Positions 1,638 to 6,352 of a DNA stretch of 6,352 nucleotides are shown one piece after another. The position numbers and the translations under genes are program-made. Position 1 is the first letter of the stretch. Every line of letters starts with the position of its first letter. The notes beneath the pieces are model-generated. The model saw nothing but the letters and a program-made list of their open reading frames with translations, was not told the DNA's origin and made no database searches. The stretch comes from a virus (lineage: Duplodnaviria; Heunggongvirae; Uroviricota; Caudoviricetes), in IMG/VR virus record IMGVR_UViG_2690316285_000017. The stretch is one strand, 5' to 3'.

Positions 1638-1814
1638 TTAACGGGGGTCTGTGTGGTCGTTATCCTTAAGGTCAAGCGTCCATGTACGACCGAACAGTTT
1701 AAAGACAACAAGCACTCTGACGAGGACGTAGCGAAGTAGCAGGCCTGCAATCAGCCCAATACCTCCACCAGTCCATACATCAGGTGACCCCAGCTCAGGA
1801 GGGAGATTTACCAT
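1638..1814 (-). CDS. Small (58 aa) predicted membrane protein with one hydrophobic helix; an alternative upstream start at 1970 would give 110 aa
   Basis: ATG at 1814-1812 is preceded on the minus strand by cttacaAGGAaaactaATG. The product MVNLPPELGSPDVWTGGGIGLIAGLLLRYVLVRVLVVFKLFGRTWTLDLKDNDHTDPR has a single TM-like segment. The locally GC-richer sequence fits coding DNA. The same frame stays open to an ATG at 1970 that has its own SD (ggggagag) and an extended -10 upstream, but that extension runs through repeat element A. Confidence 0.4.
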   Translation of the reverse strand: MVNLPPELGSPDVWTGGGIGLIAGLLLRYVLVRVLVVFKLFGRTWTLDLKDNDHTDPR

Positions 1815-1926: not shown

Positions 1927-1992
1927 TGTGCAATGCAAAATATGCGACCAAATACATAGCCACGCCTCATATTTTACTCTCCCCATAAACCC

Positions 1993-2021
1993 ATTATACC
2001 ACAGATGTTACAAAAATGTTA
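1993..2021 (-). promoter_or_regulatory. Candidate minus-strand promoter with extended -10 (TGGTATAAT)
   Basis: The minus strand reads ctgTGgTATAATggg (TATAAT = plus 1998 to 1993, TG = plus 2001 to 2000). The -35 region is weak (taacat, plus 2016-2021). Predicted start near plus 1986, directly upstream of the SD/ATG at 1970 and of the leader running towards the ORF at 1814. Confidence 0.45.
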
Positions 2022-2028
2022 AAAATAC

Positions 2029-2058
2029 TTGACATTAGTCTTTGAAAATGCTAATATT
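2029..2058 (+). promoter_or_regulatory. Sigma70-type promoter P1 (TTGACA-N17-TAATAT)
   Basis: TTGACA at 2029-2034, a 17 nt spacer, TAATAT at 2052-2057; about 50 nt upstream of the ATG at 2109. Homologous to P2 over about 65 bp. Confidence 0.6.
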
Positions 2059-2108
2059 GTATATATAGGTTAACAGAATAATAACATCTTATGAGAGTCA
2101 GAACATGA

Positions 2109-2666
2109 ATGCAGTATTCAGAATTTAGAGCGATGCTTCAGGCATCAAGAGAACGCAACAAGCACAACTCCTACGCTTACACAAACAACCCCACCAGCTA
2201 CGAAGTCCCAACCTTTAGCAAATCCGAACGTAAGAACATTGAAGCGGTCATTCGTAGCATTACGCCACGAGACAGATTTATGCCAGTACGCAAAACAACA
2301 AAGAATACTATTAAAAATTATCTGGCTAACTTTGACAGTTACGAGCAGTTACCAAGCAAGCTTGATGATGTTTTTATTGGGTTCTGTAGAAGTGAAGGCC
2401 ACCCGAAATACAACAAAAAACTATTTTATCTGCTAAAGAATCTTGACGAAATTAACGCATCCACCGTGACAAATCATCTTCAGCGACAGGCAACCAGACT
2501 TAGTTACGAATTACCAAGCGATAAATATTGCGCTTTGCTTGCTGTGATGTGCGCGAAATTAATTGGCATTGTTGAACATCATATTGCCGTTGGGAATATT
2601 GAGCCAATGGAAAACGAGCAACCAGATTTCGAGTTTGACCCCTATTTAGTTACAGAGGATTTTTAA
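2109..2666 (+). CDS. Hypothetical protein (185 aa), first gene of the operon downstream of P1
   Basis: ORF-track ORF; sits downstream of P1, and its stop abuts the next start (TAA then ATG). SD is weak (gagag about 11 nt upstream). No recognisable motif. Confidence 0.6.
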   Translation: MQYSEFRAMLQASRERNKHNSYAYTNNPTSYEVPTFSKSERKNIEAVIRSITPRDRFMPVRKTTKNTIKNYLANFDSYEQLPSKLDDVFIGFCRSEGHPKYNKKLFYLLKNLDEINASTVTNHLQRQATRLSYELPSDKYCALLAVMCAKLIGIVEHHIAVGNIEPMENEQPDFEFDPYLVTEDF

Positions 2667-2945
2667 ATGAATAAACACACATTAACCAGAGTTACAAAGA
2701 CAGCCTTTGATGAACTGAACCGAATCAAAAACATTACAGGTCTGCCACACTCAGCAGTGATGAAGCTTGCAATTAACCGTGATATTAACGAACAGGATTT
2801 GCTTAATAGTCGCTTAGAGGCTGCAAGACACCATATCAGGATTAAGCAAGATGACCTTGATAGTCTGAAATCCTTAAATGCTTTTGGACTGGATTTAGCA
2901 AGGTTACTAAGTATCAAAATTCACAAACTGTCTCAGGAGGTCTGA
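2667..2945 (+). CDS. Putative ribbon-helix-helix (CopG/Arc/MetJ-like) DNA-binding protein, 92 aa
   Basis: SD gagga 7 nt upstream of the ATG. The N-terminus HTLTRVTKTAFDELNRIKNITGLPHSAVMKLAINRDINE fits the RHH pattern: beta-strand, helix A, G-x-P/S turn, helix B. Assignment is from pattern memory, not a search. Confidence 0.6.
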   Translation: MNKHTLTRVTKTAFDELNRIKNITGLPHSAVMKLAINRDINEQDLLNSRLEAARHHIRIKQDDLDSLKSLNAFGLDLARLLSIKIHKLSQEV

Positions 2946-2947
2946 TT

Positions 2948-3220
2948 ATGAAGCAATGGCGAGATGATATTAAACGGTTCTTTGCAACTTACTTCATGAT
3001 TAATTATGAGACAGGAATGCTTGAATGGATTGATGGTGGAGAGGTTAAGACAAGAGATGATGCTTACGGTAATCCAATGATTCGTTATGGCACTCGTGAT
3101 TATTATCTGAAGTATGTCATCTGGTTTTTGCATCATGAAGTTCAGGCAACTAAAAAGATTATCTTCAGGGATGGTAATAAAAGAAATTGCCACCCAAACA
3201 ATTTACTCCTGGAGATTTAA
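2948..3220 (+). CDS. Small protein (90 aa) with a degenerate HNH_3-like motif, probably not catalytic
   Basis: SD aggagg 7 nt upstream. YLKYVIWFLHH...IIFRDGNKRNCHPNNLLL resembles the HNH_3 signature (H.L.W..hG...DHIDGNK.NN..NLR), but FRD replaces the catalytic DH(I)D. Confidence 0.6.
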   Translation: MKQWRDDIKRFFATYFMINYETGMLEWIDGGEVKTRDDAYGNPMIRYGTRDYYLKYVIWFLHHEVQATKKIIFRDGNKRNCHPNNLLLEI

Positions 3221-3420
3221 TGTTATGTATTAAATTCGAATATTTGACAGATAAAATGATTAAGCATGTATCAGACCTGCTCATCAAAGAAGGTGGTTTC
3301 GGTGATGCTTGCAATCCAAAAGATATCTTCATTCATGCCACCAGCCCAAACGCAACACTAAAGACAGCAGTTACAGCGGAATGGTTTGAACGAAATAAAG
3401 CGGAATTAGGTTATTGGTAG
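3220..3420 (+). CDS. Hypothetical small protein (66 aa), translationally coupled to the upstream gene
   Basis: ATG at 3220-3222 overlaps the upstream TAA (3218-3220) as TAATG; SD ggag about 6 nt upstream. The track's longer ORF from 3187 overlaps the preceding gene by 34 nt and has no SD, so the 3220 start is preferred. Confidence 0.55.
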   Translation: MLCIKFEYLTDKMIKHVSDLLIKEGGFGDACNPKDIFIHATSPNATLKTAVTAEWFERNKAELGYW

Positions 3421-3456
3421 TCCGAGACTTTAAGAGAAATTAGAAAAACAGCTTAT

Positions 3457-3576
3457 CAGACGCTCTCAATCGCATTCTAACGCAAAAAACTATCTTATTT
3501 TAGGGTGGGTAATACCACTACAGGCTACCCCTGAAAAAGACTGTTTAGCTCGTTACAGAGCGATTGAGGAGGTCTG
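3457..3576. repeat. Inverted-repeat element B (~120 bp), paralogous to element A
   Basis: 5' arm cagacgctctcaatcgcattctaacgc (from 3457) and 3' arm cgttacagagcgattgaggaggtctg (3551-3576). Intergenic between the gene ending at 3420 and the gene starting at 3597. The arms can form a stem of about 26 bp with about 4 mismatches. Confidence 0.8.
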
Positions 3577-3596
3577 GTAAAAAGGAGATTTTAAAA

Positions 3597-3920
3597 ATGA
3601 ACGAATATGAATTACAGATTTTCATTGATAGCGACACTGCTATGATGGTGCAGGCTTTCGCTGATTCCGGTGTATCAATTGACCTTGATAAATTACTAAA
3701 GCTAATGGCTGAAAACTCAGAAGAAATTGAAGACTTTATTCAGGAAATTGAAACTGGTGAACCGCGTTTTATGTTTCCTGTTACCGACTCAAACATGAAG
3801 CGTCTTATTATCGAAGAAACGAACAAATACAGCGTTAGCCCTGAAAAATATCTCAAGGCGGCTATAGCAATTTTGTATAGCGATAATATTCTGGTGACGG
3901 ATTCGAAGGTGGTGCATTAA
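3597..3920 (+). CDS. Hypothetical acidic protein (107 aa)
   Basis: ATG at 3597 with SD aaggag 9 nt upstream. The track's TTG start at 3564 lies inside the 3' arm of element B and is considered unlikely. Confidence 0.6.
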   Translation: MNEYELQIFIDSDTAMMVQAFADSGVSIDLDKLLKLMAENSEEIEDFIQEIETGEPRFMFPVTDSNMKRLIIEETNKYSVSPEKYLKAAIAILYSDNILVTDSKVVH

Positions 3921-3985
3921 TGGAATTGGTGATTATCTGTTTTGTATTGATTGGTATGATTGCAGGTGCATCTATTAAAGTATAA
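3920..3985 (+). CDS. Candidate 21 aa hydrophobic micropeptide (MELVIICFVLIGMIAGASIKV), translationally coupled
   Basis: ATG overlaps the upstream TAA as TAATG (3918-3922); SD-like gaaggtgg 7 nt upstream; the product is almost entirely hydrophobic. Very short, so it could be fortuitous. Confidence 0.25.
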   Translation: MELVIICFVLIGMIAGASIKV

Positions 3986-4009
3986 ATGTTACCAATCTGT
4001 TAAAAGCTG

Positions 4010-4045: not shown

Positions 4046-4192
4046 ATGGGGGAGAGCAATTCTCTCTTATTTTTTCTTTCAATAATCCGATGGATGGATA
4101 TTCTGAGTTTGAAAGGTGCAATGCTTTTCGTCCTAGCCTTTCAGGTTGGTCTGAGAGGCTATCTCAAAAAGTCTTTGTTCATTCATTATTGA
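4046..4192 (+). CDS. Candidate leaderless small hydrophobic protein (48 aa); alternatively this stretch is the body of a ~190 nt small RNA
   Basis: ATG at 4046-4048 lies 7-8 nt after the P2 -10, where transcription is expected to start (leaderless). Product MGESNSLLFFLSIIRWMDILSLKGAMLFVLAFQVGLRGYLKKSLFIHY. TGA at 4190-4192 is followed 16 nt later by an intrinsic terminator. Confidence 0.3.
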   Translation: MGESNSLLFFLSIIRWMDILSLKGAMLFVLAFQVGLRGYLKKSLFIHY

Positions 4193-4339: not shown

Positions 4340-4408
4340 AATAGAGCATCTTTAATAAATCGTTAAGTCATCTTCTAAGTGTATTGGCGTTGAAGGTGCT
4401 CTATTAAG
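4337..4408. repeat. Perfect 12 bp inverted repeat (cttaatagagca ... tgctctattaag) separated by 48 bp
   Basis: Arms at 4337-4348 and 4397-4408, directly upstream of the SD/ATG of the gene at 4436; the first arm overlaps the U-tract of the preceding hairpin. Confidence 0.8.
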
Positions 4409-5534: not shown

Positions 5535-6335
5535 ATGGCACAATTTAAAGTTGATGATTTTCTGATTGAGTTAAGTTTTAACTCTCAGAAAGTTTTAAAA
5601 GGCTTGGAAAAAGCCGAGAAACAAACGATGCAGGTAGCATCACGAATTGAGAAGCGATTGAATAAGTCGTTTAGAGTTAATCCTACGCCTTTAAATGATT
5701 CTCTCAAACTAATGGAAAGAAATGTCGATAAAACTGTTTCCAAGATTGAGCAGCGTCTTAAAAACACTAGAGCGTTTAAGATTAAAACTGAAATTGAGGA
5801 TACTTTAAAGCCACTTAGACAACCAAGACAGCCACGAATTAGCGGAAGCAGAGCAATCACAGCAGCTTACTCAGCGAATATGAGCAAGCTTCGTGACTTT
5901 AATCCTATGCTTGAGAAGTATTTTAAAAGCCAGTATTACAGCTTAAGCAGTAAATCCAAGACACTTGGAAACGAAACTTTTAATCGTGAGTTAGCAAAGT
6001 TAAATCAGTCTCTTCGTGAAACACTTTCTAAGTTTAACAAGACCACCAGCAAAAATAATCACAGTGAAAATGCTTCAAATAGTCTGGATGTATTAGCTAC
6101 GAGTGCAATCAAAGCAGGTACAGCCATTTATAGTTTTCAGACAGCCTTAGAAGCTTACAGGCGGATTATGGAGGTTGGTCTGAAAAAAGAAGCATCACAA
6201 CGAGCGGCACAATTCGTTTTAGGTGATGAAGGTGCTAAACGAGCTACAGAATTTGTTAAGAATCTTGCTGATAGTAGTGGTGTAGACCAGATTGAAACAT
6301 TAAGCAGTTTTGCTAAGTTTGAAGTGGCACACTGA
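5535..6335 (+). CDS. Hypothetical protein (266 aa), K/S/T/N-rich and probably largely helical
   Basis: SD aagaggtg 9 nt upstream of the ATG; a long ORF that ends with TGA inside the window; no family recognised from sequence. Confidence 0.6.
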   Translation: MAQFKVDDFLIELSFNSQKVLKGLEKAEKQTMQVASRIEKRLNKSFRVNPTPLNDSLKLMERNVDKTVSKIEQRLKNTRAFKIKTEIEDTLKPLRQPRQPRISGSRAITAAYSANMSKLRDFNPMLEKYFKSQYYSLSSKSKTLGNETFNRELAKLNQSLRETLSKFNKTTSKNNHSENASNSLDVLATSAIKAGTAIYSFQTALEAYRRIMEVGLKKEASQRAAQFVLGDEGAKRATEFVKNLADSSGVDQIETLSSFAKFEVAH

Positions 6336-6352
6336 ATTTGGCCACCTGAACA

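Follow-up and report, generated by a model that had tools for sequence, protein, structure and literature searches.

Divergent sigma-70 promoters and candidate ArcA-P boxes in a satellite-like integrative element of enterobacteria

The DNA analyzed here is a stretch of 6,352 nucleotides from the IMG/VR virus record IMGVR_UViG_2690316285_000017 (Caudoviricetes), called the window below, which holds part of an integrative element of approximately 11.4 kb. Within the window an AT-rich region (24% G+C at 1986-2090 compared with 38% across the window) carries two promoters back to back, and a third promoter lies further to the right. All three combine near-consensus sigma-70 hexamers with a spacer inside the expected 16-18 bp, and all have the optional TG. 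The minus-strand promoter consists of a -35 TTAACA (2022-2017), an 18-bp spacer and the extended -10 TGGTATAAT at 1993-2001 (plus-strand letters ATTATACCA), in which TATAAT occupies 1998-1993 and is accompanied by TG; it scored 11/12 in the promoter scan. Promoter P1 on the plus strand (2029-2057; 10/12) has TTGACA at 2029-2034, a 17-bp spacer and TG-n-TAATAT, and its paralogue P2 (4010-4038, plus strand; 11/12) has TTGACA, the same 17-bp spacer and TG-n-CATAAT. Predicted transcription starts are at approximately 1986 (minus), 2063-2065 (P1) and 4045 (P2), so that the first two, firing outwards, have about 78 bp between them. The original prediction, made from the letters of the window and a list of its open reading frames (ORFs), had placed the minus extended -10 and the P1 -35 at these coordinates, 28 bp apart from the end of the extended -10 at 2001, and both the positions and the distance were correct.

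Arrangements of this kind were rare in randomized DNA. When the window was shuffled 2000 times with its dinucleotide composition kept, promoters with TG and a score of at least 10/12 appeared at a mean of 0.14 per shuffle; none of the 2000 shuffles contained three of them, and none contained a divergent pair within 60 bp. Weaker promoter-like matches were not enriched in the window (20 compared with 15 ± 3.4 expected).

The promoter region was aligned across 19 members of the family (17 distinct sequences), which come from Escherichia, Shigella, Citrobacter and Salmonella. The nine columns of the minus extended -10 were invariant in all 19, as were the minus -35 hexamer, the six columns of the P1 -35 and the three of its TGn. 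Variation in the P1 -10 was confined to positions 3-5 (TAATAT, TAGTAT, TAAGAT, TAATGT) with T1, A2 and T6 fixed, which is the pattern that would be expected of a working -10. No indel fell inside the spacer of either promoter in these sequences; the interval separating the -35 hexamers, and the TA run that follows the P1 -10, did carry indels of 0-2 bp. Key positions and spacer lengths were thus held constant, and the flanking untranslated segments showed a pairwise identity of only 67%-78%. Judged by these patterns, the minus promoter and P1 look real and conserved. The claim that tightly packed divergent promoters surround repeated short sites in a mobile element is upheld.

The repeats which lie between the two promoters, ATGTTAC at 2005-2011 and TGTTAAAA at 2017-2024, had also been noted in the original prediction. 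They belong to a longer motif, TGTTAM-N5-TGTTAA, which we derived from the family alignments before the literature on ArcA was turned to. With at most one mismatch this motif occurs four times in the window, at 953 (+), 2006 (+), 2070 (-) and 3987 (+), compared with 0.10 expected, so the repeats are not random. In the eight loci scanned it was present inside the element only and absent from the chromosomal flanks. Around P1 the layout is two head-to-tail hexamers, the promoter core and then two hexamers in the opposite orientation; in the family alignment the hexamers are invariant or nearly so and the N5 between them is variable.

Three boxes result. The left box (2005-2025, plus strand; full stretch ATGTTACAAAAATGTTAAAAA) is made up of direct repeats DR1 (ATGTTACAAA, 2005-2014) and DR2 (ATGTTAAAAA, 2016-2025). 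It lies across the minus promoter, over its -35 and spacer, the -35 at 2017-2022 being the reverse complement of the TGTTAA core of DR2, and spans approximately -60 to -40 of P1, ending 3 bp from the P1 -35 (6 bp if the 18-nt core is counted). The right box is inverted (2070-2087, minus strand; ATGTTATTATTCTGTTAA on that strand) and occupies approximately +6 to +23 of P1. About 54 bp, or roughly five helical turns, separate the left and right boxes, and P1 is bracketed by them. The third box stands upstream of P2 (3986-4003, plus strand; ATGTTACCAATCTGTTAA) at a distance from the P2 -35 equal to that of the left box from the P1 -35.

ArcA is a response regulator of the OmpR/PhoB family that ArcB activates at low oxygen, in response to a reduced quinone pool. 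The boxes resemble the sites of its phosphorylated form (ArcA-P). The minimal ArcA-P site has been given as ATGTTAAAAA-1-ATGTTAAAAA, the centres of its repeats lying 11 bp apart (PMC4173790), or alternatively as TGTTAA(N5)TGTTAA (PMC7303359). The stretch 2005-2025 matched 19 of the 20 bases specified by the published consensus, for which the expectation with up to three mismatches is 0.01. Repeat starts were 11 bp apart in all three boxes (2005/2016 on the plus strand, 2087/2076 on the minus strand, 3986/3997 on the plus strand), as in the two-repeat ArcA site, and single repeats scored 6.8-10.5 of a maximum of 10.5.

We then scored the window with an 18-bp matrix rebuilt from the 115 readable rows of the 128 ArcA boxes identified by chromatin immunoprecipitation sequencing (ChIP-seq) in Table S3 of PMC3798270. 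The published cut-off for the ChIP-seq-derived matrix is 9 bits and its mean approximately 15.6 bits. All three boxes were well above the cut-off: the left box (2005-2022, +) scored 23.7 bits, the P2 box (3986-4003, +) 18.2 bits and the right box (2070-2087, -) 17.9 bits. The left box exceeded every one of the 115 training sites (maximum 21.5 bits, median 15.7), and the right box differs by one base from the box of rutR (ATGTTATTAATCTGTTAA). In 1000 first-order randomizations sites of at least 17.9 bits arose at a mean of 0.03 per randomization, and a set of three such sites, or a single one reaching 23.7 bits, was never seen. The left box was kept at the same position in 18 of 18 relatives (20.0-24.9 bits), as was the right box (16.4-18.1 bits), and the P2 box was found in 16 of the 18 at a threshold of at least 16 bits (17.7-20.7 bits). 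The flanking chromosomal DNA of the loci served as a positive control: sites of at least 16 bits there were limited to rutR/rutA and oppA, both established ArcA targets, and one further site. From the rarity and conservation of the repeats we conclude that those between the promoters, as judged from the sequence, are a genuine regulatory site, and we regard them as candidate binding sites of the host ArcA-P.

Two weaker matches were also observed. That at 154-171 (+, 15.3 bits; 17.3 bits in locus L006) lies directly after the stop codon of the small recombinase gene, and that at 4349-4366 (+, 14.6 bits) lies within a 22-nt inverted repeat (4334-4355/4390-4411) upstream of a 236-amino-acid (236-aa) gene. 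A search of viral contigs for the combination of box and TTGACA returned 28 matches, about half of them from this family and the others from unrelated, unplaced contigs.

The minus transcript was expected to cover a small membrane-protein ORF, and the minus promoter does face such a gene, of 58 aa (1638-1814, minus strand), whose conserved start is the ATG at 1814. It encodes a single-pass membrane protein, which measures 58-62 aa in the family. All 18 distinct copies keep the frame open, a 4-aa indel preserves it, and the median dN/dS is 0.19. A longer 110-aa reading from 1970 was rejected; it is not conserved and runs through an optional hairpin element (element B, 107 nt, 1823-1929), which lies in the 5' untranslated region of the minus transcript and is missing from several relatives, L004 and L005 among them. 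Domain libraries assigned the membrane protein to no family and found no DNA-binding domain in it.

P1 faces the array of six plus-strand ORFs (2109-3985) that had been proposed for it. These encode a 185-aa all-alpha protein (2109-2666), a 92-aa protein (2667-2945), an HNH-like 90-aa product (2948-3220), a 66-aa product (3220-3420), a 107-aa product (3597-3920) and a hydrophobic 21-aa product (3920-3985), with a further hairpin element (C, 3452-3578) between the genes of the operon. No terminator-like site was seen between P1 and 4046. P2 precedes the 236-aa gene, a tape-measure-like gene and, in relatives, a distal-tail-like gene.

The first two products of the P1 operon were examined as possible regulators. 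The 185-aa protein agrees at 100% identity with one seen on over 1000 contigs of Shigella sonnei, the species from which the window comes; its all-alpha core was modelled with confidence and matches no known fold. The 92-aa protein is built of two strand-helix-helix-like halves (HTLTRVTK...GLPHSAVMKLAI and HHIRIKQ...GLDLARLLSIKI), recalling single-chain ribbon-helix-helix proteins such as TraY. The N-terminus of DndE was matched below threshold by 12 of 19 family members; the two halves aligned with each other at hhalign E = 0.011, an internal repeat that is not significant, and the AlphaFold2 monomer model was poor. From its sequence pattern the protein may be considered a weak candidate DNA binder. 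Sequence searches of Pfam, PHROGs, NCBIfam, PADLOC and PDB for an element-encoded regulator were uninformative, and in the same libraries no DNA-binding domain reached significance in any product. Domain and sequence searches recognized no CI-, Cro- or LexA-like protein among the rightward genes, and a full representative search for regulator kin returned only this family and three distant unannotated proteins.

We propose that ArcA-P jointly represses the minus promoter, P1 and P2, and we give this reading a probability of roughly 0.55; both the binding and the repression are inferred from the sequence. The region would then be the regulatory node of an element of about 11 kb, with the minus promoter transcribing the small membrane-protein gene and P1, back to back with it, the six-ORF operon. 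Since the left box supplies the -35 of the minus promoter and DR1 fills its spacer, a bound ArcA-P dimer would occlude that promoter. P1 would be held between the left box and the inverted right box, and P2 would stand under the same kind of upstream box, with a weak third repeat over its -35 in most relatives. While ArcA-P is abundant the element would be quiet, and expression would rise as ArcA-P falls or is displaced. On this proposal the element genes are probably governed by the redox state of the host and not by a lysis/lysogeny switch of the phage type.

Published work on ArcA describes it as mainly a repressor whose sites overlap sigma-70 promoter elements, and at icdA sites downstream of the start repress (PMC3798270, PMC4173790). 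ArcA repeats that were improved towards consensus repress even in air (PMC4173790). In the element, overlap with polymerase elements was found at the minus promoter (-35 and spacer), at P1 for the downstream box only (+6 to +23), and at P2 through the third repeat, CTGTTGA; this weak repeat keeps the 11-bp phase over the -35 in 13 of 17 copies and is one base out of phase in the window. Because ArcA mostly represses, and the core promoters are near consensus, joint repression is favoured. The position of the left box over the minus -35 and spacer, together with a second box past the P1 start, likewise points to joint control rather than to an either/or toggle.

Several points weigh against joint repression by ArcA-P. 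Near-consensus repeats are reported to be occupied even aerobically (PMC4173790), and for this reason the redox response may be weak and another signal perhaps needed. Upstream ArcA sites can go with activation or anti-silencing, for example at the PY promoter of F and R1 (PMC7303359). The left box does not overlap the core hexamers of P1, and a phased third repeat at P1 is poor (-1.5 bits). The P1 spacer at 2035-2048 (TTAGTCTTTGAAAA) is invariant in 11 of 14 columns in the family and unlike the P2 spacer; such conservation, beyond what a promoter needs, suggests that it may be the site of a further P1-specific factor. The matrix itself covers 115 of the 128 published sites. In addition, the S. 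sonnei copy, with its interrupted tape-measure gene, is probably defective and may be decaying.

The main rival, and the one closest to the 'switch' of the original prediction, is an ArcA-dependent toggle in which the left box shuts the minus promoter and helps P1 and P2, through H-NS anti-silencing or polymerase contact, so that the two directions alternate with redox state. The boxes upstream of the P1 and P2 -35 hexamers do lie clear of them and at equal distance in both, the DNA at 1986-2090 is as AT-rich as is typical of H-NS targets, and ArcA with TraJ activates PY of R1 from TGTTAA-N5-TGTTAA (PMC7303359). Silencing of R1 PY, however, needs a non-canonical -35 (PMC7303359), whereas in P1 and P2 a -35 close to consensus is combined with a 17-bp spacer and an extended -10, and with such core promoters an activator should not be needed. 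The second P1 box at +6 to +23 is in a position linked to repression, the P2 -35 itself lies under the third repeat in 13 of 17 copies, and Park et al. reported no conserved position from which ArcA activates; we consider the toggle rather unlikely. A different protein could also occupy the sites. In this explanation a P1 product, either the 92-aa or the 185-aa protein, binds the phased hexamers and autoregulates, and the likeness to ArcA boxes reflects coincidence or competition. Plasmids and phages often have divergent promoters under autoregulation, and in immI of phage P22 they are served by the ribbon-helix-helix proteins Arc and Mnt. The ribbon-helix-helix-like pattern of the 92-aa protein and its sub-threshold DndE matches would suit this explanation, as would the conservation of the P1 spacer beyond promoter requirement and the enrichment of CTGTTAA. 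It is set back by the lack of a significant DNA-binding domain in any product, and by the left box outscoring all 115 scored ArcA sites, for which coincidence would have to be very precise, and we hold it to be doubtful.

The lysis/lysogeny analogy of the original prediction, understood as a lambda CI/Cro-type switch or a maintenance switch inducible by DNA damage, failed on gene content, and we consider it very improbable. Starts about 78 bp apart with shared sites between them do resemble lambda PRM/PR, and the element is mobile, with a large serine recombinase. Its leftward product, however, is a 58-aa membrane protein and not a repressor, domain searches gave no repressor-like, Cro-like or S24-peptidase domain, and so no recognizable repressor is transcribed on either side. 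The repeats are head-to-tail direct repeats and not palindromic operators, and the element, without capsid, terminase or lysis genes, is an incomplete phage. No LexA box (CTGT-N8-ACAG) was found near any promoter, the suggested response to mitomycin C is unsupported, and the sites instead fit the box of host ArcA-P. What stands of the predicted regulatory switch is a regulatory node with apparently real promoters and sites.

Other candidates were rejected in the course of the analysis. An invertible promoter, moved by the small serine recombinase between 2003-2022/2070-2089 or 2070-2087/3986-4003, does not agree with the colinearity of 18 of 18 relatives; the recombinase is missing from several members and the 47-bp segment is too short. 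The inverted repeats around P1 and P2 are accounted for by the opposite orientations of the ArcA-type boxes. A P2/P4-type activator site (TGT-N12-ACA), seen by eye in the window, shifts in spacing by 1-2 bp among relatives. Inspection for IHF, FNR, CRP and DnaA sites gave no convincing match.

We return here to the preferred reading, joint repression by ArcA-P, and to the element that it would control. The element is integrated between yciI and tonB, between ymdF and wrbA, or inside yecE, and its layout is constant. It begins with an optional small serine recombinase gene, the C-terminus of which is encoded at 1-155 of the window, followed by 1.5-2 kb with no conserved ORF, the minus-strand gene of 58-62 aa, the divergent promoters and the genes for the 185-aa and 92-aa proteins. 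Next come variable small genes, that of the HNH nuclease among them, then the 107-aa gene, P2, and genes of 236 and 69 aa. It ends with a tape-measure protein (PF20155, approximately 690 aa), a Dit-like protein (PF21821) and a large serine recombinase. No capsid, terminase or lysis gene was present in the relatives' loci examined. A small integrated element with an integrase and an incomplete set of virion genes is, on gene content, satellite-like and not a complete phage. The combination of tape-measure, Dit-like and large serine recombinase genes with neither capsid nor terminase, seen in relatives L001-L018, is an unusual set for a satellite-like element, and a preprint reports tape-measure genes to be rare in phage satellites (PMC12822802).

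Related DNA of 80%-99% identity, promoter region included, was found in 409 of 5426 complete E. coli genomes, and S. sonnei, E. albertii, Citrobacter and Salmonella are further carriers. No published description or name for the element was found in the literature searched. The window ends, at 6317-6352, in the terminal inverted repeat of an IS911-like insertion sequence of the IS3 family, which truncates the tape-measure-like gene (5535 onward) in the S. sonnei copy.

Several non-coding features accompany these genes. A hairpin at 4047-4070 (plus strand) forms the 5' end of the P2 transcript and is terminator-like in the window, where a T run follows it. Compensatory changes were seen in 14 distinct variants, the loop is mostly CAAUU, and about half have the T run. 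It is, on this comparative evidence, a conserved 5' RNA element which would act as an intrinsic terminator or attenuator in some copies only. An imperfect hairpin element of 105-127 nt occurs as three paralogous types, at 404-522 (inverted), 1823-1929 and 3452-3578, each present or absent independently among relatives. Basal motifs (AGACGCTCT..CGCATTCTAA / CTCGYTACAGAGC) are common to the types, and the apical parts, specific to each type, retain their pairing. Folding gave minimum free energies of -32 to -46 kcal/mol (z -2.5 to -5.8), with little difference between the strands. Rfam searched over the whole window at E values up to 1 gave no match.

The stretch of approximately 1.5 kb at 156-1637 is 75%-90% identical among relatives, yet no ORF stays open throughout them, each one being interrupted in relatives by stop codons. 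Within the stretch are a perfect tandem repeat of 28 bp (848-903), a tandem repeat of about 94 bp (1325-1407 and 1419-1502) resembling degenerate P1-like promoters on the minus strand, and, in relatives, inserted cargo of a Dam methylase or HNH-AP2 type. CTGTTAA heptamers number nine in the window compared with 1.5 expected, and six of them fall in the non-coding part at 565-1410. The stretch may serve as an origin or for packaging, or may give rise to non-coding RNA.

Promoters controlled by ArcA are well known, and on mobile elements ArcA is known to act at the promoter of F-like plasmids. The element described here is widespread and undescribed in the literature searched, its box is repeated at three promoters, and within the window only the HNH-like nuclease and the tape-measure-like protein have an assigned function. 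With the ArcA reading, the nameless 'switch' becomes a definite hypothesis: that oxygen and redox state control a mobile element through arcA/arcB. If true, it would widen the few cases of mobile DNA using ArcA beyond F-like plasmids. Oxygen level and arcA/arcB mutants, rather than mitomycin C, would be the informative conditions. We offer a broader suggestion as speculation only, and think it unlikely as a whole: that the element has no maintenance repressor of its own, that super-consensus ArcA-P boxes silence its small-gene, early and tail-gene promoters, and that loss of ArcA phosphorylation triggers what would be a new kind of enterobacterial satellite carrying tail genes. Such a loss could come from exposure to oxygen, or from the collapse of respiration or membrane potential during infection by a helper phage.

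Among known systems, the ArcA-P-repressed promoters of E. coli (icdA P1, lpdA, sdhC, rutR) share with the element boxes of two or more direct repeats built on TGTTA, with centres 11 bp apart, placed over the -35 or spacer or just past the start. They differ in that they serve carbon-oxidation operons and not a horizontally acquired element. In the element the left box is nearer to consensus than all 115 K-12 sites scored, one box serves two divergent promoters, a second box is inverted, and the module is duplicated at P2. The PY (traY) promoter of F, R1 and pSLT, controlled by ArcA/SfrA, TraJ and H-NS, has the same TGTTAA-N5-TGTTAA upstream of an extended -10 promoter and is likewise on a mobile element. 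TraY, the first product of the PY operon, is a tandem ribbon-helix-helix protein, and the possibly similar 92-aa protein is the second product here. The PY box, however, lies at -76 to -60, acts positively with TraJ and precedes a poor -35, whereas in the element the box is at approximately -60 to -43 of a promoter with a consensus -35, a divergent partner, a downstream box and no TraJ-like site or gene.

Lambda PRM/PR and other CI/Cro switches, and Stl/Str of the staphylococcal pathogenicity islands, also have back-to-back promoters with shared sites in an integrated mobile element; the promoters described here differ from them in transcribing no recognizable repressor, in having direct repeats instead of palindromes, and in lacking an SOS link. 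In gene content the element may be set beside two groups of phage satellites, those with large serine recombinases (PLEs of Vibrio cholerae) and those with a tape-measure gene (EPIPs and PLE11). Like them it is small (approximately 11 kb) and integrative, with a large serine recombinase, numerous small ORFs to which no function is assigned, and a long stretch of non-coding DNA. This likeness is one of gene content, the element having tape-measure (PF20155) and Dit-like (PF21821) genes and no capsid or terminase, and the host differs from that of the PLEs, the element residing in Escherichia, Shigella, Citrobacter and Salmonella.

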